Translations under genes and position numbers: made by a program
Assembly: GCA_031416075.1 (NCBI GenBank)
Contig: JANOSY010000014.1
Span: 63,157 to 127,156 of the forward strand
From: Candidatus Tenderia sp.
GTDB taxonomy: Bacteria; Pseudomonadota; Gammaproteobacteria; Tenderiales; Tenderiaceae
Direction: 5' to 3'
Length of the DNA stretch: 64,000 bases
Part shown: piece by piece, positions 6,851 to 62,834 of the stretch
Position numbering within the stretch: position 1 is the stretch's first letter
Layout: each line of letters begins with the position of its first letter
Notes under the pieces: generated by a model
The model's input: only the letters and a program-made list of their open reading frames with translations
Database searches by the model: none
What the model was told of the DNA's origin: nothing

Positions 6851-7753
6851 ATGAAGACTCATGGAACGGTGGAGGATCTTTTATTGACGGCCCTTGCCCC
6901 TATTGTTTGGGGCAGCACTTACGTGGTGACAACGGAGCTATTGCCGCCTGATAGCCCGTTGTGGGCGGCGGTCATCAGGGCATTGCCTGCGGGCATCATT
7001 CTGCTCCTGTTTCACCCTAAATTGCCGCAAGGGGGCTGGTGGTTTAAGGGCGTGCTGTTGGGGGGGCTGAATATTGGGGCATTTTTCTATTTTCTGTTTG
7101 TTGCGGCGTATCTGCTCCCCGGCGGTGTTGCCGCCCTTGTGATGTCGTGTCAGCCCTTGGTGGTTCTACTGCTTGGGTTGTTGCTGTTGCGTCAGCAGAT
7201 CAAGGTGTCTCAAGTCGTGGCGTGTGTGCTGGCAATGGTGGGTATTGCACTGCTGGTATTACAGCTCTCTGTTAAGTTGAATATGTTAGGCATTTTGGCG
7301 GGACTGGCGGGGGCAATTAGCATGGCAGCCGGGATTGTCTTAACCAAACGCTGGGGGCGTTCTGAAGGGGTGTCGATAGTGACATTTACGGGTTGGCAGC
7401 TCACTGCCGGGGGTCTTATGCTCGTTCCTGTAGCGTTAATGACGGAACCCTTTCCTGCCCCGTTCACCGTGGCCAACTGGATTGGTTTTGGTTACTTGAG
7501 CTTGGTGGGCACGCTGTTGGCGTATATGATCTGGTTCAGGGGGATTGGTCGATTGCCTGCGGTCACCGTTTCGTTTTTGGCGCTGTTTAGCCCTTTGGCT
7601 GCGGCGGTGTTGGGGTTTGCTATTTTGGGTGAAGGTTTTACCTATCTGCAGATGTTGGGCGGGGTCGTGATTGTGATATCCATTGTATTGGCCCAGTGGA
7701 TAAAAACAGAGGTGGCGGTTGCAAGATCTGATGGTACGGATGTCAGACGTTAA
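6851..7753 (+). CDS. pecM: EamA/DMT transporter, PecM-like
   Basis: TALAPIVWGSTYVVTTELLPP and RALPAG N-terminus typical of PecM; about 10 TM segments. Confidence 0.8.
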   Translation: MKTHGTVEDLLLTALAPIVWGSTYVVTTELLPPDSPLWAAVIRALPAGIILLLFHPKLPQGGWWFKGVLLGGLNIGAFFYFLFVAAYLLPGGVAALVMSCQPLVVLLLGLLLLRQQIKVSQVVACVLAMVGIALLVLQLSVKLNMLGILAGLAGAISMAAGIVLTKRWGRSEGVSIVTFTGWQLTAGGLMLVPVALMTEPFPAPFTVANWIGFGYLSLVGTLLAYMIWFRGIGRLPAVTVSFLALFSPLAAAVLGFAILGEGFTYLQMLGGVVIVISIVLAQWIKTEVAVARSDGTDVRR

Positions 7754-8472: not shown

Positions 8473-9660
8473 ATGGTAGACAAGAATCAAAAAAGTGGTC
8501 GATCTGTGCTGGTATGGGATCTGCCGGTGCGACTCTTCCACTGGCTGTTGGTGACGGCGTTTGTGATGGCGTGGTTGAGTTACGAAGATAATCGTTATCT
8601 GGATGTACATATATTTGCCGGTTATACCTTTTTGGGATTGTTAGTTTTCCGATTGGTATGGGGTATTTTTGGCACACATTACGCACGCTTTCGTGAGTTT
8701 AGCTACGGGCCTGGTGACGCGATCGCTTATATCAAAGGACTCTTTGGCGACGATATGCGTCGTTACGTGGGTCACAACCCCGCCGGGGCGTGGGCGATTT
8801 TTGCCCTGATTGCCATGGGGTTGGTATTAACTGTATCCGGGCTTTTTGTCTTGGGCGGGGAGGAGCGCCACGGACCCTTGGCGGGAATTGTGGGTTTTCG
8901 TCAGAGTGTGCCGTTCCGCGAGACACATGAGTTTGTCGCTTACACGTTGCTGCTGCTGGTATTTGTACATGTGTGCGGTGTGTTGGTTGAGAGTTTTTTT
9001 CATCGTGAAAATCTGGTTGGTTCCATGTTTAGAGGAACTAAGTCGGTTGCCACTGCAATACCGGGTGTTCGCCCTCACCGTCTGGTCGGTGCCGCCATTA
9101 TTGCGGTGGTGGCCGCTTATGTGGTTGCTACCTTTGGTGGTTATCTGACGGCGACTAAAGAGCAGCCCTATCTGCCGTTTCAGGGGCCGCATCTGGTGAT
9201 GAATAATCCCTGGACTGAGGCGTGTAGTGAGTGCCACCTTGCTTTCCATCCTTCGCTATTACCACTGCGTTCATGGCAACAGATATTGAAACAGCAAGCG
9301 GACCATTTTGGCGATGATCTGGCCCTGGATGGGGATACCGTAAATGAGTTGCTGGCATATGCCCAGAAAAATTCTGCTGATTTAGAGCAGACGGAACCCG
9401 CCTGGCGAATGAACAGCAACATTCCCAGCAGTGAGACCCCATTGCGTATTACTGACGTGAGCTACTGGGAACGTAAACATGAAGAGATAGACACTGAGGT
9501 TTGGAAACGTAATGAGATTAAAAACAAGGCCAATTGTGGGGCTTGTCATTTCGATGCCAAACAGGGCACCTTTGAAGATGCTGATATGCGCATTCCAGGA
9601 GAGAATGCTTTTGATAGCATTGAGTGGTTGAAATCCATTTTAGGCGGTAAAGATAAATAA
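8473..9660 (+). CDS. Cytochrome b (Ni-hydrogenase cyt b family) fused to a diheme cytochrome c (DHC) domain
   Basis: VWDLPVRLFHW and GHNPAG in the cyt b part; CSECH..AFHPSLLP.RSW...HFG and CGACH in the C-terminal domain. Confidence 0.9.
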   Translation: MVDKNQKSGRSVLVWDLPVRLFHWLLVTAFVMAWLSYEDNRYLDVHIFAGYTFLGLLVFRLVWGIFGTHYARFREFSYGPGDAIAYIKGLFGDDMRRYVGHNPAGAWAIFALIAMGLVLTVSGLFVLGGEERHGPLAGIVGFRQSVPFRETHEFVAYTLLLLVFVHVCGVLVESFFHRENLVGSMFRGTKSVATAIPGVRPHRLVGAAIIAVVAAYVVATFGGYLTATKEQPYLPFQGPHLVMNNPWTEACSECHLAFHPSLLPLRSWQQILKQQADHFGDDLALDGDTVNELLAYAQKNSADLEQTEPAWRMNSNIPSSETPLRITDVSYWERKHEEIDTEVWKRNEIKNKANCGACHFDAKQGTFEDADMRIPGENAFDSIEWLKSILGGKDK

Positions 9661-9681
9661 TATTGTTCAAGGAGCAGTGTC

Positions 9682-10089
9682 ATGAAGTTGAGACTTTTAG
9701 CGGTGATTTTAATGGGGTGTATGACAACGTTGGCTGGGCTTGCCCAGGCGAGCGTGGTTGAGCCACTCCAGCAGGAGTACAAAACGGCAGGCGCGGGTCC
9801 TTTCAGTGCCGCTAAAGGACAGAAAATGTGGGTTGAAAAACATAAAGATGCTGAGTCCGGCAAAGAGTTCAGCTGCCAGACTTGTCATACAGACGATTTG
9901 AAAAAATCGGGCAAACATGAAAAGACCGGCAAGGTGATTGATCCGTTGGCACCCTCGGTCAATAAAGAGCGACTGACAGACATCAAATTTGTTAATAAAT
10001 GGTTTTTGCGTAACTGTAAACAGGTATTAGGTCGTGAGTGTACACCTCAGGAGAAAGGTGACTTTCTTGAATACTTGAAGGATCAATAG
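9682..10089 (+). CDS. Sphaeroides heme protein (SHP, DUF1924) cytochrome c
   Basis: Signal peptide, CQTCH, I.PLAPSVN.ERLTD and KWFLRNC.QVLGRECT.QEKGD motifs. Confidence 0.88.
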   Translation: MKLRLLAVILMGCMTTLAGLAQASVVEPLQQEYKTAGAGPFSAAKGQKMWVEKHKDAESGKEFSCQTCHTDDLKKSGKHEKTGKVIDPLAPSVNKERLTDIKFVNKWFLRNCKQVLGRECTPQEKGDFLEYLKDQ

Positions 10090-10117
10090 CGTTCCAAATA
10101 TTTTGTCGAGACGGGGA

Positions 10118-10657
10118 ATGGTGATGAAAAATAGAATATGGGCAATGATTGCCGGGATTGCCGGGATTGCATGGTTGTTGGTAAATAGTGGTTATGTATT
10201 GGCAAGTGCACCTAACACCGATTTTGCAGCGGTGACAAATACTAAATATACCAAAGAGTGTGGTGCCTGCCATCTGGCCTATCAGCCGGGGCTGTTGCCG
10301 GAGCGGTCATGGCGCAAAGTGATGGAAAATTTACATGACCATTTTGGTGATAATGCGGAGCTGCCGACGACCGATCAGCAGGCGCTGGTTGAGTATCTGG
10401 TGAACAACTCGGCTGAGCGAGCTAACTATAAACGTTCAGCACAGATGCTCCACTCGATCCGTAAAGTGGATACCCCGGTGCGAATTTCCCAAGTGCCCTA
10501 TTTTATTCGTGAACATCGTGAGGTGGCCAACAGAGTAAGAGGTAATGAAAAGATAAAGAGTCTCGGCCAGTGTGAGTTGTGTCATCAGAAAGCAAATGAA
10601 GGCTCTTATGCCGAGAACGAAATTAGAGTATTGGGAGCGGAGAGCTGGAATGATTGA
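10118..10657 (+). CDS. Diheme cytochrome c (DHC)
   Basis: CGACHLAYQPGLLPERSW, HFGDNA and CELCH motifs; signal peptide. The start could instead be 10124. Confidence 0.9.
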   Translation: MVMKNRIWAMIAGIAGIAWLLVNSGYVLASAPNTDFAAVTNTKYTKECGACHLAYQPGLLPERSWRKVMENLHDHFGDNAELPTTDQQALVEYLVNNSAERANYKRSAQMLHSIRKVDTPVRISQVPYFIREHREVANRVRGNEKIKSLGQCELCHQKANEGSYAENEIRVLGAESWND

Positions 10658-10820
10658 TCATGTGCCACCATAAATTATGATAAATAGGGCCGTATTGTGT
10701 AGGGTTGTATAGGCGGTTGAATTGTAAAAAATCGTCTAATTTCAGATTCATCAGCCATCGTGGGTTGTCAGCCCGCTGTGTTAGTCAGTAGTATGGTCCC
10801 CTGTTATTCACAGGAGACGC

Positions 10821-11546
10821 ATGATGAAACAAAATAAAAATATGGCAAAAGCAGTCGCACTTGTAATCGGTGGGCTGTTGGCAGGGACGGCAATGGCGGC
10901 AGACAAAAACGGTTGGACGGGTGAAGCTGCCCTGGGTTTTGTGATGACGTCCGGTAATACCGAAACGCAGTCGATTAATGCCAAGGCAAAAGCGGTGAAT
11001 GAGCGTGATATGTGGCGTCATTCGGCGGCTATTGAGGCGCTTAATACTGAAACCAGCGATATCACGACGGGTGAACGTTATCTGTTGTCAGGACAGACCA
11101 ACTATAAATTTAAGCCACGTCACTATGTTTTTGGTCTGGCTGCCTATGAGGATGATCGTTTCAGTGGTTATGATTGGCGTGCCAGTGAAGTATTGGGTTA
11201 CGGTTATCGTGCGATAGAAGAGTCGGATTTGACACTGGATCTGGAAGCGGGTCCTGGTGCGCGTCAAAGCCGTTTGAATAATGGCACCAGAGATAATGAA
11301 GGCATGTTCCGCGTTGCGGGTAATCTTGACTGGAAGGTGAGCGATACCTCAAGTTTTTCTCAGGTGCTGACCTCTGAAATTGGCAGTGATACCACCATCT
11401 CTAAATCTGTGACGGGCCTGAAAACACAGATCAACGGCAGTTTGTCGATGAAGATTGCACACGCTATCAAACATACTTCAGATGTGCCGGTAGGTATAGA
11501 AAAGGTTGATCGTGAAACGGGCGTGATGCTGGTTTACGGCTTCTAA
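10821..11546 (+). CDS. DUF481/YdiY-family outer-membrane beta-barrel
   Basis: Signal peptide, W.GEA.LG...TSGNTET, YE.DRFSGY and C-terminal LVYGF. Confidence 0.85.
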   Translation: MMKQNKNMAKAVALVIGGLLAGTAMAADKNGWTGEAALGFVMTSGNTETQSINAKAKAVNERDMWRHSAAIEALNTETSDITTGERYLLSGQTNYKFKPRHYVFGLAAYEDDRFSGYDWRASEVLGYGYRAIEESDLTLDLEAGPGARQSRLNNGTRDNEGMFRVAGNLDWKVSDTSSFSQVLTSEIGSDTTISKSVTGLKTQINGSLSMKIAHAIKHTSDVPVGIEKVDRETGVMLVYGF

Positions 11547-11571
11547 CTTAGCGAAGATAGACCTATCTCCG

Positions 11572-11596
11572 GGCCGCTCAATGAGCGGCCTTTTTT
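11572..11596 (+). terminator. Rho-independent terminator
   Basis: GGCCGCTCA-A-TGAGCGGCC followed by T6. Confidence 0.8.
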
Positions 11597-11680
11597 ATAG
11601 GAGCCGTGCCGAGACTAGGCGCACAGCACTGGGTGGGCGATGTTTTTGATCCGATGAGCATCAGAGAGACACGGCCCCCG

Positions 11681-14545
11681 TTACGAGGCCCGTTGTGCAT
11701 TGCGTAGTGCGGTCCTCTCCAGCAGTGGTTTGAGGAAGCGTCCGGTGTGTGAGTCGGGGTTCTCGGCCACCGCTTCCGGGGTGCCAATGGCGACGATGGC
11801 ACCACCTTTGTCACCACCCTCAGGACCGACATCGATGAGCCAGTCGGCGGTTTTGATGACATCGAGATTGTGTTCGATGATGACGATGGTATTGCCGTGG
11901 TCACGCAGTTGATGCAGCACCCGCAGCAGCTGTTCGATGTCGTGAAAGTGCAGGCCGGTGGTGGGTTCGTCAAGGATATAGAGTGTTTTGCCGGTGTCGC
12001 GTTTGCTCAGCTCGCGTGATAGTTTGACCCGTTGTGCCTCACCGCCCGAGAGGGTTGTGGCGTTCTGGCCGAGGGTGATGTAACTCAGGCCAACATCCAT
12101 CAAGGTTTGCAGTTTGCGTTTGAGCGCGGGCACGGCGCTGAAAAACTCCAACGCATCTTCCACCGTCATGGCCAGGATTTCAAAGATGTTTTTGCCTTTA
12201 TATTTGATGTCGAGGGTTTCGCGGTTATAACGTTTACCCTTGCAGACATCACATGGCACATAGATGTCAGGCAGAAAGTGCATTTCAACCTTGATGACCC
12301 CATCCCCCTGACACGCTTCACAGCGCCCACCCTTGACATTAAAACTGAATCGGCCCGGTCCATAACCGCGGGTGCGGGCCTCTTGTGTGCCGCAAAACAG
12401 ATCACGAATCGGAGTAAACAGTCCGGTATAGGTGGCAGGATTGGAGCGGGGTGTGCGGCCAATCGGGCTCTGGTCGATATCCACCACCTTGTCGAACTGG
12501 TCGAGACCAATCAGTTCGGTGCAGGGGGCGGGATCTTCACCGGCACCGTTGATGATGATGGCGGCGTTGCGGTACAGGGTGTCGTTGATCAGGGTGGATT
12601 TGCCGGAACCAGAGACCCCGGTGACACAGGTCATCAGGCCGATGGGGATGTTGACATCTACCTTTTTGAGATTGTTGCCACTGGCACCACAGATGCGGAG
12701 CTGCCGCTCTGGATCGTTGGCGGTACGTTGTGCCGGGATCTCAATCGCCCGTGTGCCGTTGAGGTATTGGCCGGTGATAGAGGCGGGGTTGTTGATCACC
12801 TGCTCGGGGGTGCCGGCGGCGACGACGTTGCCGCCATGTACGCCAGCACCGGGGCCGATGTCGAGCACATAGTCGGCCATCCGAATGGCATCTTCATCGT
12901 GCTCCACCACAATCACGGTGTTGCCGAGATCACGCAGGTAGGTGAGGGTTTCGAGCAGCCGTTCGTTGTCGCGCTGGTGCAGGCCGATGGAGGGTTCGTC
13001 AAGCACGTACATGACGCCAACCAGTCCGGCACCGATCTGGCTGGCAAGGCGGATGCGTTGTGCCTCGCCCCCCGAGAGTGTATCGGCACTGCGGTTAAGA
13101 CTCAGGTAATCGAGCCCGACATTGACCAGAAATTTAAGTCGTGCCTGAACCTCTTTAACGATCTTGTCGGCAATCTGCCCACGTTTGCCGGGCAGTTTCA
13201 ACTCCCCAAAAAAGTCGTGGGCACGGCCGACGGCCATGGAGGTGATCTGGGGCAGTGTATGGTCGGCGATAAAAACATTGCGCGCCTCGATACGCAGCCG
13301 GTTACCGTTGCAGCTTGGGCACGATTGGGTGCTGAGGTATTTGGCCAGCTCTTCACGCACAACGTTGGATTCGGTCTCGCGGTAGCGCCGCTCCATGTTG
13401 GGGATGATCCCTTCAAAGGGGGTGGTTTTGGTCTTGGGTACGCCGCGATCATTAAAAAAGCTGATCTCAAGCGTTTCATCACCGCTGCCATACAGAAGTG
13501 TTGTTTGCAGTTTTTCCGAGAGCTCGTTGAAGGGGGTGTCGAGATCAAATTTGAAATGGGTGGCGAGGGATTGCAGGAGCTGAAAATAGTAGGCGTTGCG
13601 GCGATCCCAACCGCGAATGGCCCCGCTGGCCAGACTGAGGTCGCTATTGTGTACCACCCTTGCCGGATCAAAAAACTGTTTGACGCCCAGTCCATCGCAG
13701 CTGGGGCAGGCACCAAACGGATTGTTGAAGGAGAAGAGGCGTGGTTCCAGCTCAGCAATACTGTAGCCGCAGTGGGGGCAGGCAAATTTGGCGGAGAAGA
13801 CCATGTCGTTGTTGTTTGTGTTTGTCTCATCGTCCATCCAGGCGACGCGGACAACACCGTCGGCCAGATTGAGGGCGGTTTCAAAGGACTCTGCCAGTCG
13901 CTGCGCCATGTCGGTGCGTACCTTGAAACGGTCGACCACTGCTTCGATGGTATGTTTCTTCTTTTTATCCAGCTCCGGTACCTGATCCAGCTCAATAATC
14001 TGGCCGTTGATACGGGCCCGCACAAACCCCTGGCTGCGTAGTTCGGCCAGTGTCTGCAGATGTTCGCCTTTGCGGCCATCAATCACCGGTGCCAACAACA
14101 TCAGCTTGCTGCCTTCGGGCAGGGCCAGCACATGGTCAACCATCTGGCTGACGGTCTGTGCCTCCAGCACCACATCGTGCTCTGGACAGCGTGGTTCGCC
14201 AGCCCGGGCAAAGAGTAGCCGCAGGTAGTCGTATATCTCGGTGACGGTACCGACGGTGGAGCGGGGGTTGTGGGAGGTTGATTTCTGCTCGATGGAGATG
14301 GCGGGTGATAGCCCCTCAATGTGGTCAACATCGGGTTTCTCCATAATGGCGAGGAACTGCCGTGCATAGCTGGAGAGTGATTCAACGTAGCGGCGTTGCC
14401 CCTCGGCGTAGATGGTATCGAAGGCAAGTGATGATTTGCCTGAGCCTGAGAGGCCGGTGATGACAATCAGCTTGTCACGGGGCAGGTCAAGATCGATGTT
14501 TTTGAGGTTGTGGGTGCGGGCACCGCGGATCTGGATGGTATCCAT
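11681..14545 (-). CDS. uvrA: Excinuclease ABC subunit A
   Basis: GARTHNLKN, two Walker A motifs ([16 protein letters not shown]), zinc fingers and two LSGGEAQR motifs. Confidence 0.99.
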
Positions 14546-21300: not shown

Positions 21301-21634
21301 TGCCTTGATAAGTCTCCAGTAATTAACCGCCATAGACGTCTGTTGCAGCATTGTAAAATCCTGGTCCACAGTGGTTTATTTCAAAGTCATCAGGAATCTA
21401 TTCAATATCTTACCGATAGTATGACGGCACTTTGTTTGATAACTGATGGCCTCCTGGTTAATCGTATGGTGTGAGCTTAATGGTTATATGCAGGTTCTCT
21501 CCCTTCTCTAAAGAGTTTTAAATTAGTGCCGTTGTCTAGGGGGAGCAGTGGTGCAGCACCAATAGAATTTTAGTTGCAAGGGTATTGGTGAAAGCTAAGT
21601 TTTCATCTGTTTTGTGGTTGAAGAGGAAGCAAGG

Positions 21635-23266
21635 ATGGTTAAGTCGTTTGAGAAGTTACTGGGGATGTATAGCTGGAGGGCCAAAATATTAGGCTTAGCC
21701 AGTATTTTTGCTCTTGGCACACTGGCAGTGGGTGCCATGGGTGCCTACTCCATTCTCAAACTGAGTCAGGATGTTAAAGAACAGAACGCCAAATCGACAG
21801 CGCGGACGCAAATCATCGAAGAGGCGCAGTTTGCGCTGCTGAGAATGGGGACAGCGCAGGCTGAGGTGATTGCACATGTCGATGTGGCCGAGATTAAAAA
21901 AGCCTCAGTCACCGCCATCAAAGCGGCCGCTGACCTGGAAGAAAAGCTGCATAACCTGCATGAAGCATTGCCAGATGATACCAATGTGAAGGAGTTACAG
22001 AAGCTGGTGCAAGACCTTAAACCACGGCGTATGCAGGTGATTATCCTGGCACGGCGTGACCGTGACGATGAAGCGCTGGGAGCCCTTGAGGTGATGGTGC
22101 CTGTATTTAAACGTGTTGATGAGTTGGCCACCACCATTGTTGATGAGCAGCGGCTGGTGACAAAACAGTATCTGGTGGATATTGAAGAGCAGGGCAAACA
22201 GACGGTTTATGTATTAATGATTTTTGTGGGTGTCGGCCTGTTTGTTAGCATTATTCTGAGTCTGATCTTGGCAAGATTTGCGGTGAAACCGATGTTTGTA
22301 TTGGAACGGGCGATGGCTGCACTGGCAACCGGTGATCTACAGGTAAAACTGGGTGATGCCGGTCGCGATGAAGTGGGGCGTATGGTCAAGGCTATGAATA
22401 GTACGGTCGAAGATCTGCATGCCATCGTGACAAAAATACAGGGTGGTACCAATACGTTGAGCAGTGAGGCGGGTCGTGTGGCCAGTGCTGCCGATAAAAT
22501 CCACAGCGTCTCTAATAATTTACATAAAGGTGTAAAAGGCATTAAAAACGATGCCGACATGGTGATGTCAACCACCAATAACGCGGCGCATGAGTTGGAG
22601 CAGGCGGCTGAGCGTGCTCAACAGACAGCAGACAGTTCTGAATCAACCGTTGGTACACTCAGCAAAACAACGGCAGGTTTTGAGCGTTTCCAAAATCAGA
22701 TGGAAAGCACGGCGGAAGTGACCCGCGACCTTGCACGAAAAGCGGAAAATATTACCGCCATCACCAAAACTATTCGTGACATCTCATCACAAACCAATTT
22801 ATTAGCACTGAACGCAGCGATTGAGGCGGCCCGTGCCGGTGAACAAGGGCGTGGTTTTGCCGTGGTGGCGGATGAGGTCAGGCAGCTGGCTACCCGCACT
22901 GAATCAGCCACTTCAGAAATATCGACACTGGTCGAAACCATCTCGTCCAGTGTGAACAATGCTGTGGAGTTGCTAGACCGTTCAGTGGCCGAATCCAGTG
23001 AAAATATTTCGGGGTTAAAACAGGTGGTGCAGGAGACCGTACATAATCGTGATCAGGCAGTTTATCTGCGTGATGTAATGCACCAGGTTGTAAGGATGAT
23101 GGGTGAGCAGGAGCAGGCAGTGGGTGGAATTAATAAATCGGTAAACGGGCTGTTTGATTTGAGTGCTGAAACCAGCAAACAGACGGAGATATTGCACTCT
23201 TTATCCGCCAGTCTTAATGAGGCCGCAGCCGATTTGGGTCAGATCGTGGATAAGTTCAAGCTGTGA
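21635..23266 (+). CDS. Methyl-accepting chemotaxis protein (2 TM, helical periplasmic sensor, HAMP)
   Basis: HAMP (GDL...RDEVG) and the signature [31 protein letters not shown]. Confidence 0.95.
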
Positions 23267-23319
23267 TACCAACTATTAACAGTTAAACAATATTTTGTAA
23301 TGTACAGGAGACTTTGATA

Positions 23320-24366
23320 ATGAAAATGGGACCTTTTGCTGTAAAAAGATTAACAACACAGATTGCCGTAGCGGTGATGGGTGCTTCGATGGCGTTTGGT
23401 GTCATTGCTGCCGGGACTATCAAACCCTCTGAGGAAGATATTACAAAATATCTACGCCCCGCGGCCGTGCCACAACCCGCTGACAACATGATGACACCGG
23501 AACGAATAGAGTTGGGAAAATTTCTGTTTTTTGATCCACGCCTGTCGGGTTCTAATTTTATCAGTTGCGCCACCTGTCATAACCCTGCCATGGGATGGTC
23601 TGACGGCCAGCCGACGGCGATTGGTCACGGTATGGGACAGTTAGCGCGTTCGTCGCCAACGATACTGAATACCGCCTATCAATCCCTGATGATGTGGGAT
23701 GGCCGTTTCCGTTCTCTGGAGGAGCAGGCCCTCGGCCCCATCCAGGATGGCGGCGAAATGGCACAACCGATGATTGAACTGATCCCGGAGATCAAGTCCA
23801 TTTCCAAGTATGCGGTGATGTTTGAAGCCGCCTATCCCGGTGAAGGGGTGACCAAGGAGGGGATCGGCAAGGCGATCGCGAGCTTCGAGCGTTCTATTGT
23901 CTCAACCGATTCCGGCTTCGACCGTTGGTTGAAGGGGGTCGATACGGCGATGAGTGACTCTGCCAAACGCGGCTTTACCCTTTTCAAGGGTAAGGCCAAT
24001 TGCGCGGCTTGCCACAGCGGCTTCAATTTCAGCGACAACGGCTTTCACAACATCGGTCTACCCGATAGTAAGGATGATGGGCGCTACCGGGTTAAAAAGG
24101 TTGAGGTGCTGAAGGGTGCCTTCAAGACCCCAACCCTGCGTGACGTCGCCCTTACTGCCCCCTATATGCACAACGGCCAGTACAGCACCTTGGCAGATGT
24201 GGTAGCCCACTACAATCGTGGTGGTGACAAAAATCCTGGTCATCTTAGCCCCAATATGAAACCGCTGAATCTCAGCAAGGCAGAGCAGCAGGATCTGGTT
24301 GAGTTTTTGAAGGCGCTGACCGGGGATCCATTGGCACTTACATTCCCACAGCTGCCGGTTAACTAA
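23320..24366 (+). CDS. Diheme cytochrome c peroxidase, MauG-like
   Basis: LFFDPRLS, CATCH, MWDGR, CAACH, FKTPTLR and PYMHNG motifs; signal peptide; AGGAG RBS. Confidence 0.92.
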   Translation: MKMGPFAVKRLTTQIAVAVMGASMAFGVIAAGTIKPSEEDITKYLRPAAVPQPADNMMTPERIELGKFLFFDPRLSGSNFISCATCHNPAMGWSDGQPTAIGHGMGQLARSSPTILNTAYQSLMMWDGRFRSLEEQALGPIQDGGEMAQPMIELIPEIKSISKYAVMFEAAYPGEGVTKEGIGKAIASFERSIVSTDSGFDRWLKGVDTAMSDSAKRGFTLFKGKANCAACHSGFNFSDNGFHNIGLPDSKDDGRYRVKKVEVLKGAFKTPTLRDVALTAPYMHNGQYSTLADVVAHYNRGGDKNPGHLSPNMKPLNLSKAEQQDLVEFLKALTGDPLALTFPQLPVN

Positions 24367-24391
24367 GATTGGATAGGAAAAGGAGATCATT

Positions 24392-24727
24392 ATGTTGAAT
24401 ACAAAGACGGTTGTGGCTGGTCTGGTTGTTGTCATGTTTTCGGTGGCGGCAGGTGCTGCGGAAGTGATTGTGGCGCAGAATAGTAAAAGCTTTAAAAAAG
24501 ATGGTGCAAAAATTGAGAAAATAAGCGTTAAAGCTGGCGACTCAATTTCATTCAAAAATGAAGATCCATTTTTTCATAATATTTTTTCGCTCTCTGACCT
24601 GAAAACATTTGATTTGGGCTCATACCCAGCAGGTGAGTCAAAGTCAGTCAAGTTTGACAAGCCGGGCGTGGCGGAAATTGAGTGCGCCATTCACCCAGAC
24701 ATGCTGCTGGAGGTTACGGTTAATTAA
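24392..24727 (+). CDS. Small exported cupredoxin (type-1 copper)
   Basis: Signal peptide, then F.N.D...HN and C-x2-H-x2-M (CAIHPDM) ligand set. Confidence 0.88.
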   Translation: MLNTKTVVAGLVVVMFSVAAGAAEVIVAQNSKSFKKDGAKIEKISVKAGDSISFKNEDPFFHNIFSLSDLKTFDLGSYPAGESKSVKFDKPGVAEIECAIHPDMLLEVTVN

Positions 24728-25383
24728 TGTTGCACTGGTGCTGTTCCTGGTTCGGAATAGCATTTCTGTTGGCGATGTTTGGTTTTGTCAATGTGGCAGA
24801 GGCTGCCAGGGAACGGCGCTAGGATGTGGACGAGATAAGGACGCAGCCGTTAATCCGAGGTGCTGTTGTTTTTAAATCATACTGCGTGATGTGTCATGGT
24901 GAAGCGGGCGATGGAGTGGCCCGTGCGACCAAGCTTTATGGACAGATGAACCTGGTTATCATGGAGCGATCGGATGAGTTTTATGAAAAGATCATTCGAG
25001 TGGGTGGGCTGGGTGTTGGGTTGTCGAAGTTTATGCCAGCTTGGAAGGATGAGCTTACGGATGAGCAGATAAAAGATGTGGCGGTCTATTTAAGTGCTGT
25101 TGGCTCACCGGAAAAACGTGGTGAGGCGGTTTTTAAGACTAACTGCATTCTTTGTCATGGAATTAAAGGCAATGGAAAGGGGCGGGCCGCCGTGCTTTAT
25201 GACCCGCCACCCGCCGATTTGACACGCAGTGATAAAAATGATGATTACAAGCGGTCGATCATTACGATGGGTGGTAAAGCAATGGGACGTTCTGAGGTGA
25301 TGCCCGTATGGGGCAAACAATTAACAGTGCAGGAGATAGATGATGTGGTTGTTTATCTTCGCACTATCGTCATGGACCTTTAG
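24727..25383 (+). pseudogene. Diheme cytochrome c with an in-frame TAG (24820-24822) after the signal peptide
   Basis: The ATG overlaps the upstream TAA and gives MLHWCCSWFGIAFLLAMFGFVNVAEA-ARERR, then TAG, then the same frame continues into CVMCH and CILCH heme domains. Confidence 0.7.
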
Positions 25384-25450
25384 TTCTTCTGGTGCAACAG
25401 GGCGCTGCTCTGCATGGCATGTGGCAGAATAAAAGACAGGGATAACACAG

Positions 25451-26131
25451 ATGAAAAAACTGAAAAATTTGGTGTTGGTGCTGGCAGTGTTCAGCTACCT
25501 TATGGGTTCTGCTTATGCAAGTGAGGAGCGTGAAAGTCGCAATGAGGTGCGCGACACCATGAAACAGGCAAAGGCCAAAACCCGCCAGGCGACACGTGGT
25601 GGTTTGGTTTATAAAACCTACTGTGTGTTGTGTCACGGTTTACATGGTGATGGTTCTGCCAGGATTGCCAAACTCCATAGTGGATTAAACCTGGTGATTG
25701 GGAAACAGGACGATACCTACTATGAAAAGATTATTCGTCAAGGCGGTGAAGGTGTGGGACGCTCCGGTTTTATGCCCACCTGGGATGATGAACTCTCCGA
25801 CGAGCAGATCACTGATGTAGTGATCTACCTGTCGTTGGTCACCGATCCGGTGCGTCGTGGTGAGGTGGTCTTTAAAACTAACTGTATCCTTTGTCATGGG
25901 GTGAATGGTGATGGTAAGGGGCGTGCCTCAGAGCTGTATGATCCACCCCCAGCCAACCTGACACGCAGTAACAAAAACGATGATTATAAACGTTCGATCA
26001 TCACGCTGGGTGGTGCAGCAATGGGCCGTTCAGAGGTGATGCCGGTCTGGGGCGAACAGCTGGGCGCTGATGAGATTAATGATGTGGTGGCCTATCTTCG
26101 GACCATTTTGGTGGTACCCCCTACAGAATAG
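25451..26131 (+). CDS. Diheme class I cytochrome c (two c6/c553-like domains)
   Basis: Signal peptide; CVLCH and CILCH, each followed by an MP.W distal Met motif. Paralog of the upstream gene. Confidence 0.9.
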   Translation: MKKLKNLVLVLAVFSYLMGSAYASEERESRNEVRDTMKQAKAKTRQATRGGLVYKTYCVLCHGLHGDGSARIAKLHSGLNLVIGKQDDTYYEKIIRQGGEGVGRSGFMPTWDDELSDEQITDVVIYLSLVTDPVRRGEVVFKTNCILCHGVNGDGKGRASELYDPPPANLTRSNKNDDYKRSIITLGGAAMGRSEVMPVWGEQLGADEINDVVAYLRTILVVPPTE

Positions 26132-26151
26132 AACGGACGTTTGTTTGCCCT

Positions 26152-26191
26152 AAGAGAGGGCGCGGAGATTGTCTCCGTGCCCTCTCTTTTT
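26152..26191 (+). terminator. Rho-independent terminator closing the MCP-peroxidase operon
   Basis: AAGAGAGGGCGCGGAGA-ttg-TCTCCGTGCCCTCTCTT followed by a T run. Confidence 0.85.
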
Positions 26192-33665: not shown

Positions 33666-34736
33666 TTAATCGGGCTTGCCCAGTTCGCCATGATGGTTGG
33701 CTGTGGCCATCAGGACGGTATTGAGCGGTAACTCATCACCACCACCGCCCAGTACATAGACGCGATTTTTATCGGTGGCCACGGCATAGGCGCTGCGCGG
33801 TTGTGGCAGTGGCGTGGTATAACGCCACGGGGCTAAGGTGCCATCGGTGTTGATGCGTGTGACCTCAACACTGTTGAGTCGGCTGTTGCCAGTGTGTCCA
33901 CCGGCGATATAAAGGTGCTGGTTGATGACAAACGCCTCCGCGACCAGTCGTGGTGTGAGCAGGGGATGGGGGTCTATCTGCCAGGGCGAGAGGGTCTGGT
34001 CAGGCTGGATCTGGCTTGATTCCACGTCACCATAGCTGGCCTGGCCTGGATCACGCATATGGCCGCCGAGCAGGTAGAGTCTGTTTTTGTGGCGGGCGGC
34101 GGCATGGATGTAGCGGTCGATAAGTGATTCGTACTGCTCCTTCTGCCACTCACCAATGGTTCCATCCCCATTCAGCGCAGCACGTTCGCTGGATTTGAGA
34201 AACTGGCCATCGTAACCGCCAGTGGCGTAGAGGATATTTTGGTGCAACACCAGCTTGAGGCCACGGCGTGCGGTGGTCATATGGCTGACCACTTGCCACG
34301 GCCCCAGTGAGCCATCTCTGTTGATGGAGGCACGTTCGATCGAGTCGAGTGGATAGTTCTCATAGCCACGCTCACCACTGCCACCGCCAAGGGTGTAGAG
34401 ATAGCCGTTAGTGGCGACGGCAGCATTGTAGAAACGCCCCTGATTCAGGTCGCTGCTGAGTTGCCACGGGCCAAGCCGACCATTGCCATTGATGTGTGCG
34501 TACTCCACCGTCTGTACATAATGGCCATCGCCATCAATACCGCCAATGAGATAGAGGTGGTTGTTATATACCACCGCTGCAGGTGCACGGCGGGCGTAGT
34601 GAAAGGAGGTTTCGCTGCTCCAGCCACTTTGCCACGCTTGAGTGGTGGGCTGGGTTGAGGAGCCACTGACCAGCCAGATGATGAGGGGGATGAGTAGGCC
34701 AAGGCCGAGAACAGGGACGGCAAACTGTTTAAACAT
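33666..34736 (-). CDS. Membrane-anchored Kelch-repeat beta-propeller protein
   Basis: N-terminal TM and six repeats of R......(hydrophobic)Y..GG; most repeats end in DG.L.PW. Confidence 0.85.
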   Translation of the reverse strand: MFKQFAVPVLGLGLLIPLIIWLVSGSSTQPTTQAWQSGWSSETSFHYARRAPAAVVYNNHLYLIGGIDGDGHYVQTVEYAHINGNGRLGPWQLSSDLNQGRFYNAAVATNGYLYTLGGGSGERGYENYPLDSIERASINRDGSLGPWQVVSHMTTARRGLKLVLHQNILYATGGYDGQFLKSSERAALNGDGTIGEWQKEQYESLIDRYIHAAARHKNRLYLLGGHMRDPGQASYGDVESSQIQPDQTLSPWQIDPHPLLTPRLVAEAFVINQHLYIAGGHTGNSRLNSVEVTRINTDGTLAPWRYTTPLPQPRSAYAVATDKNRVYVLGGGGDELPLNTVLMATANHHGELGKPD

Positions 34737-57276: not shown

Positions 57277-57753
57277 TTAATGATGCTGGTGAGAATTGGC
57301 GTCTGTTGTTGCCTCATCATTTTGCTTGACGATTAAATGGATTGATTTTGTGATGTTTTCGAAGTGCAACGTCAGCGGGATGGAGTCGCCAGTTTTGATG
57401 GCCTGCTTGGGATTGCTTAGCATTAGATGGTAACTGCCAGGTTCAAGCGTTGCGGAGCCTCCTGCGTTGATGGGGAGGGTCTTTACTGTCTCCATGTGCA
57501 TCATTCCGTTGTGTAGTGTGGTGCGATGTAGTTGTACGGTGCTGAATGAAGGGCTGCTGGCGGCGGTGAATACTATGTTGTTGCCGGAGCGGTTGTGAAT
57601 GGTCATGTAGCCTGCCAGTACAGTGGCTGTCGGTGGGGCGCTACGTATCCAGGGGTTTTCGATATTGATCTGTTCTGCCCCCCATGCAGTGGTTGCCATG
57701 ATCATTATGCTGCTGGTGATGGCGATAAGGTTGTTTTTGTAGTGCTTCAACAT
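57277..57753 (-). CDS. Copper chaperone PCu(A)C
   Basis: PW.R, AGYM.I.N and H-x7-MM.M...L.PG.YHLML; His-rich tail. Confidence 0.9.
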   Translation of the reverse strand: MLKHYKNNLIAITSSIMIMATTAWGAEQINIENPWIRSAPPTATVLAGYMTIHNRSGNNIVFTAASSPSFSTVQLHRTTLHNGMMHMETVKTLPINAGGSATLEPGSYHLMLSNPKQAIKTGDSIPLTLHFENITKSIHLIVKQNDEATTDANSHQHH

Positions 57754-57757
57754 TGAG

Positions 57758-58390
57758 TTACTCTCCGTAATAGTCACGAATTTTTGTAATGACGTTGACC
57801 ATTTTGCTAGCAGGGTGTGGGGGTAAGATATGGGCGCGTAGACGGCCTTGGGGGTCAACTACGAGAATGGCGGAGTAGTGATTAACCTCATAACTGTTGC
57901 TGTCGTTGTTGCTGAACTCATAAATCACACCTACAGCTTCGGCAAGCTGGTCTATATTCTTTTTGTCTCCAGTGAGCGCAATGAAATCTGTATTAAAGTA
58001 ATGTACGTATTCTTTGAGCTTTTCTGGGGTGTCGCGCTGTGGGTCTAAAGTGACAAAAACGTATTTTATATCTTCATTTCCAGCCATTTTTGCGACTTGA
58101 TTCATGTTTGTCAGCGTTGTTGGGCAAATGTCAGGGCAATGGGTGTAGCCAAAAAAGAGCAGGCTCCAGTGCCCTTTAAGGCTTTTTAGATGAAAGGGGG
58201 AACCCTCCTGGTCTATCAGATTGGTATCGGGTAGTGTGATGGGAGGGGATATGATTGACACTCCCATTTGTGCCTGAAACTCCAGCGGGGCAGGTTCGTT
58301 TTCTACAAACAGGGCAACGCCAGCGCCTGTGAGTAACAGGGCGAGTAATCCAAATAGAATGAGTCGGTTTTTTTTCAGAATGGGATTCAT
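57758..58390 (-). CDS. SCO1/SenC family protein
   Basis: FGYTHCPDICP, DPQRDT and Y.V.H motifs; N-terminal TM. Confidence 0.93.
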   Translation of the reverse strand: MNPILKKNRLILFGLLALLLTGAGVALFVENEPAPLEFQAQMGVSIISPPITLPDTNLIDQEGSPFHLKSLKGHWSLLFFGYTHCPDICPTTLTNMNQVAKMAGNEDIKYVFVTLDPQRDTPEKLKEYVHYFNTDFIALTGDKKNIDQLAEAVGVIYEFSNNDSNSYEVNHYSAILVVDPQGRLRAHILPPHPASKMVNVITKIRDYYGE

Positions 58391-58647
58391 ATATTTGAGC
58401 CTGGAGTAGTTATGGTTCCGGTTTGTTGTGTGGAATGGATCATGTTTATCGATGATACCCATTTTTTTCGTATAAAAGAGGTTTTTATGCTGTAAAAGTA
58501 GTGATTTTTTCTTTAATGGATGGTACAAGATCAAGGGAGAGGGAAAATCTGTTTTGTCGTTGTTGGCAACAAGGTAAACTCTTGTCATCACATACATTCA
58601 TTTTGAAAAACAACTCTTGTTTATCAACCACAGGGGCGAGTATAGCA

Positions 58648-61303: not shown

Positions 61304-62834
61304 GAATGGCACTTACTTAAGCTTCTGAGGATGTCCATTTTTCTTCACCTCAGCTCTGGCTTGATCACGTGGTTTCGTAAGCAAAGGGTAAGGCTTCGGT
61401 CGTCGTTTAATGGCACGTGGCTCAATACGCCCTGGACGATTTCCAACCCGTTGTTGCGCAATCAATGCAAACAGTTCGGAAAGCACGTCATCCTCATAAC
61501 CCATGCCTCGTTGATTCCATGCCACCCAAAGTTGAAGGGTATGTTTGAAGCTGAGTTCACGGGGTAGCTTGTCTGCCAATAAGGCGGATTGAGCCATGAT
61601 TAGCCGGATCAGGTTATCAGCCAGCAGATATACCCAGATCTCCTTGACGACCATCTCTGGCGTCTTGCAGCTCAACACCTCCATGCCCAAGGTGGTTTTG
61701 ATGTTGCGCAGATCCAGTTCAACATGCCAGCGGTTACGATAAAACTCTTTAAGTGCAGCCTTGGGCATCTGTTTTGGACACAGTAACGTTGTCACCAGAA
61801 TTTTGTTGCCCGTTTTCAACTCCCTTACCGTCAATGTCTCTGGGGCGCTCTCATAATGCTCCTGGGACATCCAGTCAGGTTTAATCTTTGGCTTGCACAA
61901 TACAATCAGAGGGTCGTGCTGCCCCAATCGCTGGCCACGGCGAAAGTCGGTGCTGCGTTTCCGTGCCCCTTGCTGTTCAAAGACTGCATTCACGTTTCGA
62001 CGTTGCAGCTCACACAGCAAAAAATAGCTGGCGTAATAGGCGTCACCCAACAGAATGTCACCTGAGTTGAGTGTGTCGAGCATCGTGCGCAACAAAGATT
62101 GCTCATCACTGCCCTCGCCTAGAGGCGCCTACTTTTGGTGCCCTGGCAACTACCGATGGCGGCATTGAGCACGGCTCCACTCCCCAGACATATCAGCGCC
62201 ACAAGGCGGGATAAGGGAAAACCCAATCCGGGTTTTTGACTATTCGGCTGTGGGAAGCGTTCTTGATTAGCGAGAGTATCGGGCAACGATACCGTCGTGC
62301 CATCGACCCGTCGTACGGGGTGATTTTGATAATGCCAAGCGTTGGGCGCCTGCTTTGTGATCAATTGTCCTGTGCGATGGACCAGTGCACTCACCATCTC
62401 CGTCGGCAGCCTTTTCCTCGCCTGACAATAAGCGCCTGTATGAGTACTGCAACCTGCCAAGCCACCGGCCAAGCGTTTGATGGCGGCTTCATTCACAGCT
62501 TTCTGGCATGCACGGTCTGCGCTTAGGGCCTGCGCCAAAAACATCGATAATGTCTCTGTGGGTGGGAACAGTCTTTCACGATGATCGGGCAGTAATGATT
62601 CAATGTCATTTAGCAATTGCGAGCTGGTCAGTAGATTGAAAAAGTCATAAGAATCGGTGTTCGCAGCTCGAGTGTGGACGCGCCGCTGTTGATACTCACG
62701 TGGACTGTGGTTAGGATGCATTCTGGCTGGTTCCTTGGTGATGGGTGTTGGTTTCGCAGCTCATACCTTATCACCTTGGATCAGCCTTTTTAATCCTTTT
62801 AAATCATGTGGTTGTGGTTAAGTAAGTGCCATTC
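61304..62834 (-). mobile_element. IS4-family insertion sequence (1531 bp)
   Basis: Perfect 17-bp terminal inverted repeats GAATGGCACTTACTTAA / TTAAGTAAGTGCCATTC around a DDE transposase; no flanking direct repeat. Confidence 0.9.
61313..62721 (-). pseudogene. IS4-family transposase split by a 23-nt insertion
   Basis: VDGT in the N-half; GDAYY and the YREK motif (YRNRWHVELDLRNIK) in the C-half. The frames join as CQG-EGSDEQ if 62117-62139 is removed. Confidence 0.85.

Follow-up and report, generated by a model that had tools for sequence, protein, structure and literature searches.

Canonical bacterial cytochrome c peroxidases (bCCPs) have small periplasmic electron donors, pseudoazurin or cytochrome c550 in Paracoccus and azurin or cytochrome c551 in Pseudomonas, and the ligand in their His/Met-ligated high-potential haem is presumably the Met of a 'VKIM' motif. 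In MauG, we take Tyr294 to be the axial ligand of the six-coordinate haem. The equivalent Tyr ligates the six-coordinate haem of BthA, and the report on that enzyme presents a superfamily network in which Tyr-type enzymes occur outside mau operons (PMC6405878). In Campylobacter jejuni, the gene docA, coding for a putative cytochrome c peroxidase, is placed by a review immediately upstream of docB, which codes for the methyl-accepting chemotaxis protein (MCP) Tlp10 (PMC3156733), so that the docA/docB precedent cited in a first-pass annotation of the DNA studied here is real. Here we analyze a 64,000-nt stretch of the genome of Candidatus Tenderia sp. (assembly GCA_031416075.1, contig JANOSY010000014.1, positions 63,157 to 127,156; hereafter the window), in which five open reading frames (ORFs) called on the plus strand at 21635-26131 code for an MCP, a di-haem peroxidase, a cupredoxin and two di-haem cytochromes c. 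In the explanation that we consider best, this cluster represents a copy of a periplasmic module that is both conserved and transferable, and in which a membrane sensor is genetically tied to a peroxide-reactive electron-transfer set.

The evidence that carries this conclusion comes from gene neighbourhoods. A profile from 38 aligned relatives of the peroxidase was used to scan one genome per species, and the loci of the best 80 of 587 confirmed relatives provided the sample, in which ORFs were called and searched with the five window proteins. A cupredoxin gene is adjacent to the peroxidase gene in 22 of these 80 loci, a signal transducer gene also in 22, and both are adjacent in 19. Put differently, a transducer is found next to the peroxidase in 19 of the 22 cupredoxin-bearing loci; of the 58 loci that lack a cupredoxin, only 3 have one. 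The first-pass annotation had proposed to ask whether homologous peroxidase/cupredoxin clusters lack recurrent linkage to signal transducers; in our sample such linkage is clearly recurrent. The partners in the 19 doubly linked loci are 18 MCPs and one hybrid histidine kinase, and Pfam searches of all 22 linked transducers return MCPsignal for 21 and the hybrid histidine kinase for one. All 22 are encoded no more than 1.4 kb from the peroxidase gene. No further MCP-like ORF is present in the 1,030,812 nt of locus DNA, 616,062 nt of which lie outside the linked clade described below.

The flanking genes of the linked loci vary, and the gene order is permuted in three of them (L011, L026 and L047). 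The transducer gene is co-directional with the peroxidase gene and separated by short gaps in 17 of the 22 loci, divergent in four and convergent in one. The spacing between MCP and peroxidase genes may be as tight as 6 nt (L008), 2 nt (L074) or a 4-nt overlap (L045), and in three loci (L039, L069 and L073) the set consists of a peroxidase and an MCP only.

In a quick maximum-likelihood tree of the peroxidases (LG+G4; 80 rows, comprising the window and 79 loci, with L079 left off because no peroxidase ORF was found at its contig end), all loci linked to a cupredoxin or a transducer fall within one 30-row clade having SH-aLRT support of 100. The 50-row sister group contains no cupredoxin- or transducer-linked locus. 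Twenty rows of the clade, including the window, have both partners, three have only a transducer, three only a cupredoxin and four neither; on the tree, seven label changes are needed for the transducer and five for the cupredoxin. The clade spans three phyla: Pseudomonadota (alpha, beta and gamma), Acidobacteriota and Bdellovibrionota. What we observe is a persistent, selected association within one clade, which may go back to few origins. Selected genetic coupling of a sensor to the redox set is well supported, and we hold it to be very probably correct.

Two of the loci with a cupredoxin only show signalling genes of other kinds nearby. Locus L010 ends right after the cytochrome gene, and a CHASE3 hybrid kinase gene lies divergently upstream. 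In L019, a gene for a 1339-aa Ser/Thr kinase with an AAA_16 domain (9367-13386) is convergent on the peroxidase-cupredoxin pair, and a second cupredoxin gene is located upstream (7072-7608); this kinase may represent another kind of signalling partner.

Within the window, the successive genes of the cluster are separated by 53 nt, 25 nt, a 1-nt TAATG overlap and 67 nt. The cluster is followed by an intrinsic terminator (26152-26191, plus strand) with a 17-bp stem, a 3-nt loop and a T run (-35 kcal/mol, z = -6.46), and none of 200 shuffled sequences folds as well. Both the five co-oriented genes with one TAATG overlap and gaps below 70 nt, and the single strong terminator at the cluster end, had been noted in the first pass and are borne out by the ORF coordinates and the hairpin, respectively. 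The intergenic gaps inside the cluster fold no better than shuffled sequence and contain no internal hairpin. The candidate leader/promoter region is the 265-nt intergenic stretch (21370-21634, plus strand) between a divergent mlaE-like gene and the MCP gene. A consensus scan revealed no sigma-70-like site on its plus strand and neither a promoter nor a terminator in the MCP-peroxidase gap; Rfam returned no family for the region, only sub-threshold miRNA noise, and its fold is ordinary (z = -0.75). For FNR and sigma-28 boxes the same region was inspected by eye only, and nothing convincing was seen. The short gaps, the hairpin-free interior and the one terminator are compatible with a layout that appears operon-like.

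The peroxidase (23320-24366, plus strand, 348 aa, predicted to be periplasmic) has two CxxCH motifs and matches Pfam CCP_MauG (PF03150) with 188 bits as well as Cytochrom_C. Its relationships differ along the chain. In searches of PDB sequences with the whole protein, MacA (4aal, 218 bits) and the Paracoccus CCP (2c1u, 208 bits) score well above MauG (78 bits), and the nearest relatives of the N-terminal half are true peroxidases. When the C-terminal 77 residues are searched alone, MbnH comes out on top (6e1c, E 7e-8), followed by BthA and MauG. The alignment places H297-Y298 at the 'VKIM' Met of the canonical peroxidases (MacA and Paracoccus CCP), and Y298 coincides with chain residue 294 of MauG (3l4m; 'LFYN' vs 'AHYN') as well as with the corresponding Tyr in MbnH and in BthA. 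Thus, judging from the alignment, it holds that the second haem carries the Tyr of the MauG/MbnH/BthA type as a putative ligand. H297, Y298, W126, E146-M147 and the haem motifs are invariant in the 38 aligned relatives; across the wider set of 80 rows, Tyr occupies the Y298 column in 72 and W126 is present in all 80. In eight Nitrospira-type relatives (L016, L017, L020-L023, L025 and L030) Leu replaces this Tyr, and the second haem of these proteins may be ligated differently. The distal His typical of canonical peroxidases is present in the window as H103, which aligns with the His mutated in the MacA entry 4aao, but is found in only 11 of the 80 rows. With H103, W126 and E146, the window enzyme has the distal His, the inter-haem Trp and the catalytic Glu that a bCCP carries for its peroxidatic haem.

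The score of the enzyme against the MauG family TIGR03791 is 330.6, below the cut-off of 443.85, and that against the MbnH family TIGR04039 is 228, below the cut-off of 362.85; a MbnP-like neighbour was not found. No mau, mbn, che, msr or dehydrogenase genes were detected by family searches among the window ORFs of at least 150 aa, which upholds, for ORFs of that size, the earlier statement that mau, mbn, che and dehydrogenase genes are not nearby; mau genes are also lacking among the neighbours in 25 related loci. The label 'MauG-type' given in the first-pass annotation is therefore correct as to the diagnostic Tyr, but not in the stricter sense of a family assignment, given the sub-cut-off TIGR03791 score and the absence of mau genes, which rule out a pure MauG orthologue. 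A pure bCCP is ruled out as well, by the Tyr in place of Met. Since the MauG and MbnH scores are below cut-off and Met is exchanged for Tyr, we regard the protein as a Tyr-type member of the CCP_MauG superfamily, distinct both from MauG orthologues and from canonical peroxidases.

The cupredoxin (24392-24727, plus strand, 111 aa) carries a signal peptide and matches Pfam Copper-bind with 27 bits against a cut-off of 21.2. All 68 aligned cupredoxin sequences have the copper ligands H62, C98, H101 and M104, and 435 relatives were found in a 90%-clustered database. The family profile matches amicyanins with E-values from 9e-8 to 4e-7 and shares with them the C-x2-H-x2-M loop, aligning 'CaiHpeM' with amicyanin 'CTPHPFM' (E 4e-7); its top match overall is a cupredoxin domain fused to copper nitrite reductase. 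With these ligands in place, the protein meets the description of an amicyanin-like type-1 (blue) copper protein that is predicted to bind copper. The window's mature cupredoxin has no Trp, and the 68-sequence alignment contains no invariant or near-invariant Trp or Tyr.

The two cytochromes are paralogues with 60% identity. Cytochrome #2 (25451-26131, plus strand, 226 aa) is intact, has a signal peptide and contains two Pfam Cytochrome_CBB3 domains; among solved structures it comes closest to the di-haem domains of CcoP, at some distance (E 8e-10). Cytochrome #1 (24727-25383, plus strand), with two CxxCH motifs and two Cytochrome_CBB3/Cytochrom_C domains, is interrupted. An in-frame TAG (24820-24822) splits the signal peptide, starting with the ATG at 24727 in the TAATG overlap, from the two-haem mature part. 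The sole ORF that spans the haem domains begins with GTG at 24826 and has no signal peptide, so that its product could not be exported to the periplasm, where haem would be attached. A 97% identical protein of 218 aa (P0241) is uninterrupted and has Gln at the TAG codon, relatives at 80% identity are also 218 aa long, and the frame after the TAG is otherwise clean. The intact relative with Gln and the clean downstream frame point to either a recent nonsense change or a sequencing error. The earlier statement that all four redox proteins have signal peptides accordingly stands for the cupredoxin and cytochrome #2, but not for cytochrome #1, whose signal peptide is cut off by the TAG. Three more distant relatives (L001-L003) have a single such cytochrome each. 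In the Gallionellaceae locus L011 (6941-7957), the cytochrome is 338 aa long, and in the alignment its haem domain is repeated once more at the C-terminus. By their sequences, the cupredoxin and the cytochromes look like working electron carriers and not like substrates for modification.

The MCP (21635-23266, plus strand, 543 aa) has the layout of a membrane chemoreceptor: TM1, a periplasmic four-helix bundle, TM2, HAMP and the signalling domain. Pfam scores are 118 bits for MCPsignal, 43 bits for HAMP and 30.2 bits for 4HB_MCP_1 (cut-off 27), and the ATG at 21635 agrees with the N-termini of orthologues. The periplasmic sensor domain (residues 38-187, 21746-22195, plus strand) belongs to a distinct 4HB subfamily, and its AF2 model consists of four helices with a mean pLDDT of 95.3. 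In an exhaustive phmmer search of 1.84 billion representatives, 184 sensor relatives passed E<=1e-3, of which 23 also reached E<=1e-10; the majority are about 540 aa long. In 53 aligned receptors, R88, I95, E103, L108, L121, N142, D144 and A147 are near-invariant, and no Cys, His, Met, Trp or Tyr is conserved in the sensor. According to the AF2 model, R88, N142 and D144 would be located at the two membrane-distal loops that form the apex of the bundle. Foldseek ranks Vc1313-LBD best (TM 0.87), followed by MCP2201, Tsr and the HK9 sensor; the TM range for small-ligand chemoreceptor domains is 0.76-0.88, with Foldseek E-values of only about 1e-2. The QseE-QseG complex is among the structural neighbours, at rank 39. 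When the peroxidase (32-348), the cupredoxin (23-111) and the sensor (38-187) were submitted jointly to complex prediction, with the sensor as the partner, the median score was 0.34, compared with 0.55 for the control in which the peroxidase was replaced, a result that counts neither way as to binding.

We also considered a sensor that carries a haem or metal cofactor of its own. This idea was dropped, because CxxCH motifs are absent from all 22 linked transducers and the 53 aligned sensor sequences share no conserved Cys, His or Met. The exception is L046, from a Caulobacter sp. metagenome-assembled genome (MAG), where a 777-aa MCP is encoded directly after the peroxidase and cupredoxin genes (9241-11574). 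This receptor begins with a four-TM cytochrome b561 domain; two further TM helices, a helical region in the periplasm and the signalling domain come after it. In the Kiloniellaceae locus L018 (9345-11702), the linked MCP bears a C-terminal PilZ domain, which suggests c-di-GMP input on the same receptor.

The sensor domain is not confined to chemoreceptors. A profile of the domain matches 9 of the 22 linked transducers; eight of these belong to the training set, and the ninth is the hybrid histidine kinase of L007, from an Acidobacteriota MAG. Although not part of the profile, this kinase matches it with 126 bits, and it is related to the window MCP over residues 7-215 (BLASTP, 29% identity, E 2e-20; hhalign probability 99.8). 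It contains HisKA, HATPase and two receivers, and the gene order is kinase-peroxidase-cupredoxin-cytochrome. The sensor domain thus keeps its genomic redox partners while the output changes from an MCP to a hybrid kinase. Among 25 sensor-family matches, chosen non-randomly as representatives of odd lengths, 12 have MCP outputs, seven kinase outputs, one a GGDEF output and five no output that was recognised; the weaker of these matches may reflect mere generic similarity between helical bundles.

Taken together, these observations suggest how the module might work. Cytochrome and cupredoxin would pass electrons from the respiratory chain to the peroxidase, which would reduce H2O2 or a related oxidant in the periplasm. 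Turnover would alter the redox or conformational state of the cupredoxin or of the peroxidase, and the altered protein would dock on the conserved membrane-distal apex of the four-helix-bundle sensor. The receptor would thereby report the periplasmic oxidant load, the output being taxis in peroxide or oxygen gradients in the window and a phosphorelay in relatives. In this scheme, the electron flow, H2O2 as the stimulus, the contact between protein and sensor and the direction of taxis are what we infer.

We rate the central proposition, that the redox proteins supply the sensor input, at somewhat less than an even chance. It is favoured because the peroxidase is the only peroxide-reactive part and the sensor has no reactive residue of its own, because the sensor domain retains its genomic partners when the output changes, and because one relative, L046, has a haem domain wired into the receptor. 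An oxidant theme may also be read from the neighbourhood. MsrP and MsrQ, which constitute a periplasmic methionine-sulfoxide repair system, are encoded directly downstream and on the same strand as the cluster in four loci (L011, L027, L047 and L074), MsrP passing the NCBIfam equivalog cut-off in all four and MsrQ in one. Along with the b561-MCP fusion, we count these neighbours for a redox input, as an indication drawn from gene content. A broader generalization can be offered only tentatively: that a MauG-type peroxidase and an amicyanin-like cupredoxin, together with a cytochrome, would make up a new extracytoplasmic input class, a periplasmic receptor for H2O2 or other oxidants that is read by membrane sensors and would be a haem/copper analogue of peroxidase-based redox relays. 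It is just as tentative that, across three or more phyla, these sensors would feed chemotaxis and phosphorelay, and perhaps signalling by c-di-GMP as well.

A number of observations weigh against a redox-fed sensor module or limit how far it may be generalized. The linkage could descend from few events: independent contrasts between cupredoxin and transducer yield only five pairs (median p 0.25) and therefore have no power to show correlated gain or loss. Four of the 30 clade rows are without partners; in L005, which is itself a Tenderia sp. locus with the peroxidase by itself, and in L009 the gene stands alone, in L035 it adjoins an unknown 149-aa ORF, and L071 is a 1.9-kb contig. MsrPQ is confined to one seven-row subclade, and since all four loci belong to it, the linkage to MsrPQ may be a single event. 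Thirteen of the 22 linked transducers have other sensors, a poor fit to one conserved docking interface. These comprise generic 4HB domains in L006, L018, L040 and L073, CHASE3 in L045 and L060, the N-terminal cytochrome b561 of L046 and unrecognised domains in the rest. The structures nearest to the window sensor bind small molecules, D-Arg in the case of Vc1313, malate or citrate in MCP2201 and Ser in Tsr, and a sensor gene beside enzymes that process its ligand is the ordinary small-ligand pattern too. One of the two cytochrome genes in the window is interrupted. Finally, docA-type peroxidases of Campylobacter reportedly make no contribution to H2O2 resistance, according to the review (PMC3156733).

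Several of these points converge on the explanation that competes best with a redox input, namely that the two parts are co-located but independent. The redox genes would then form a periplasmic peroxide-reduction or respiration unit supplied by electron donors of its own, and the MCP or kinase would bind an ordinary small molecule, such as the true substrate of the enzyme, an organic hydroperoxide, a metal or a cue of the oxic-anoxic interface, the linkage serving co-expression. An ordinary ligand is possible because the nearest folds are small-ligand-binding chemoreceptor domains, on which the sensor model also superposes best, and the conserved polar residues R88, E103, N142 and D144 could build a ligand pocket. 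The heterogeneity of sensor types among the linked transducers fits such independence, and a kinase with the same sensor beside the operon resembles a substrate-responsive regulator. Chemoreceptor genes are, moreover, found in catabolic operons for their ligand, nahY being an example. H2O2 itself could hardly be that ligand, since we know of no H2O2 sensor that works by simple binding and the sensor has no conserved reactive residue. Against a small ligand, the b561-MCP fusion beside the same genes points to electron exchange, and at least four sensor architectures on one peroxidase clade are hard to reconcile with one shared small molecule. On balance we think this explanation possible but rather unlikely, for the small-molecule ligand as for the co-location in general.

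A second alternative is that the cluster belongs to a lithotrophic chain. The cupredoxin and cytochromes would conduct electrons to oxidases, the source being Fe(II), a cathode or reduced sulfur, in the manner of a rusticyanin/Cyc1-like chain, with the peroxidase clearing by-product H2O2 and the MCP mediating energy taxis. This idea draws on the company the cluster keeps, since its close relatives come from Candidatus Tenderia (P0019 and P0288), Gallionellaceae (L011) and Ectothiorhodospiraceae/Thiotrichaceae MAGs. However, the same cluster is also carried by heterotroph lineages, including Catenovulum, Oleispira, Ramlibacter, Piscinibacter, Caulobacter, Bdellovibrio-like bacteria and Acidobacteriota. 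Among the window ORFs of at least 150 aa and in the related loci, we see no gene for an outer-membrane cytochrome, an oxidase or a dehydrogenase linked to it, and in the Tenderia sp. locus L005 the peroxidase stands by itself. Both the electron chain and the accompanying roles of peroxidase and MCP consequently strike us as improbable.

Even less credence can be given to a protein-modifying enzyme, in which the Tyr-ligated di-haem enzyme would use H2O2 to oxidise a residue of the cupredoxin or of the sensor and so mature or switch that protein, as MauG acts on pre-MADH and MbnH on MbnP; MsrP could reverse such an oxidation if it concerned methionine. The alignment of Y298 with the Tyr of MauG, MbnH and BthA, its retention in most relatives (72 of 80) and the MsrPQ genes adjoining in four loci would fit this scheme, as would the co-encoded protein partners of Tyr-type enzymes described in the main text of the BthA report (PMC6405878). 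Yet suitable targets are hard to find. The mature cupredoxin lacks Trp, its family has no invariant Trp or Tyr and all four copper ligands are intact, and the sensor is devoid of conserved Trp, Tyr, Met and Cys. No methylamine dehydrogenase (MADH), MbnP or phosphatase-type partner was found among the window ORFs of at least 150 aa or in related loci, and the N-terminal half of the enzyme is nearest to true peroxidases.

As for chance or hitch-hiking, in which adjacency is inherited with no functional meaning, the restriction of every linked locus to one peroxidase clade and the powerless contrast test would allow it, but linkage across three phyla despite varied flanks, gene orders, strands and transducer families, together with a zero background density of MCP genes in the locus flanks, makes it highly improbable.

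On one side of the cluster in the window lies a divergent mla/pqi-like lipid-transport operon and on the other parC, and the G+C content of the cluster (0.485-0.50) is lower than that of the flanks (0.567 and 0.585). A similarly low G+C content (0.48-0.49) is seen across 6-12 kb, where a cytochrome b561 with a fused 'dihaem cytochrome c' (DHC) domain (8473-9660, plus strand) is followed by a stand-alone DHC protein (10103-10657, plus strand); the two may make up a further periplasmic module for electron entry in this genome. Further away, a PCuAC copper chaperone gene overlaps SCO1/SenC (57277-58597, minus strand), and these copper-delivery genes might supply cupredoxins or oxidases. At 33666-34736 (minus strand) lies the gene for a Kelch-repeat beta-propeller protein of 356 aa that matches no NCBIfam entry, and a DDE transposase ORF at 61313-62095 (minus strand), close to the window end, adjoins ORFs with no family match.

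How bacteria sense H2O2 or redox conditions outside the cytoplasm is poorly understood. A receptor that has no reactive residue of its own and travels with a peroxide-reactive haem enzyme represents a testable candidate for oxidant sensing mediated by a partner protein. For the large 'MauG-like' group of enzymes, whose function is unknown, the association hints at a role in physiology, and it could make sense of docA/docB, the unexplained colonisation pair in Campylobacter. The same sensor-redox pairing in many unrelated bacteria hints at an undescribed route of oxidant sensing outside the cell. Genetic and biochemical work is within reach, as cultured bacteria carry the cluster (Catenovulum sp. 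SX2, Ramlibacter montanisoli B156 and Piscinibacter sp. MQ-18).

Compared with described systems, the window cluster combines features that are otherwise found apart. With canonical bCCPs (Paracoccus, Pseudomonas, Geobacter MacA/CcpA) the peroxidase shares its pair of CxxCH motifs, the Trp between the haems and the EM motif, to which the window enzyme adds the distal His, as well as the periplasmic location and a cupredoxin and c-type cytochrome as plausible donors. It differs from them by Tyr in place of the Met ligand, by donors that are co-encoded and by a chemoreceptor in the same putative operon. The mau cluster offers the same trio of a Tyr-ligated di-haem enzyme (MauG), a C-x2-H-x2-M cupredoxin (amicyanin, MauC) and a c-type cytochrome (c-551i), whereas the window has no methylamine dehydrogenase or other mau genes, is only distantly matched by MauG (the 78 bits given above) and has an MCP instead. 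MbnH-MbnP and BthA have in common with the window enzyme the C-terminal region and the Tyr and, by the main text of the BthA report, an existence outside mau operons with a co-encoded partner (PMC6405878). In contrast to these systems, the window has no MbnP or phosphatase partner; its partners are a classical electron carrier and a sensor, and neither chemotaxis nor cupredoxins are mentioned in that main text (PMC6405878). The docA/docB pair, compared by description only, resembles the loci with a peroxidase and an MCP alone in that the two genes are adjacent, but no cupredoxin or cytochrome is reported for Campylobacter in the relevant section of the review (PMC3156733).

We found no description of a peroxidase-cupredoxin-MCP cluster in the literature searched, with most subscription journals outside its coverage. 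Tar with maltose-binding protein, TorS-TorT and QseE-QseG use the same kind of four-helix-bundle periplasmic domain to read a protein partner in the periplasm; the window's sensor has a conserved apex, at which the contact is putative. Those three systems pair the sensor with a solute-binding protein or a lipoprotein, whereas the candidate partners in the window are redox enzymes and carriers. On the output side, the proposed oxidant taxis is shared with oxidant and redox chemoreceptors such as the CZB receptors TlpD and McpA, and Aer, Aer2 and HemAT. A recent preprint attributes oxidant taxis by Salmonella McpA to a cytoplasmic zinc-Cys domain and notes that H2O2 can attract and can be an electron acceptor via Ccp (bioRxiv 10.64898/2026.07.03.735341). 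The known oxidant chemoreceptors, as portrayed there, have their own cofactor or a zinc-Cys site, whereas the receptor in the window would rely on separate periplasmic proteins (bioRxiv 10.64898/2026.07.03.735341).

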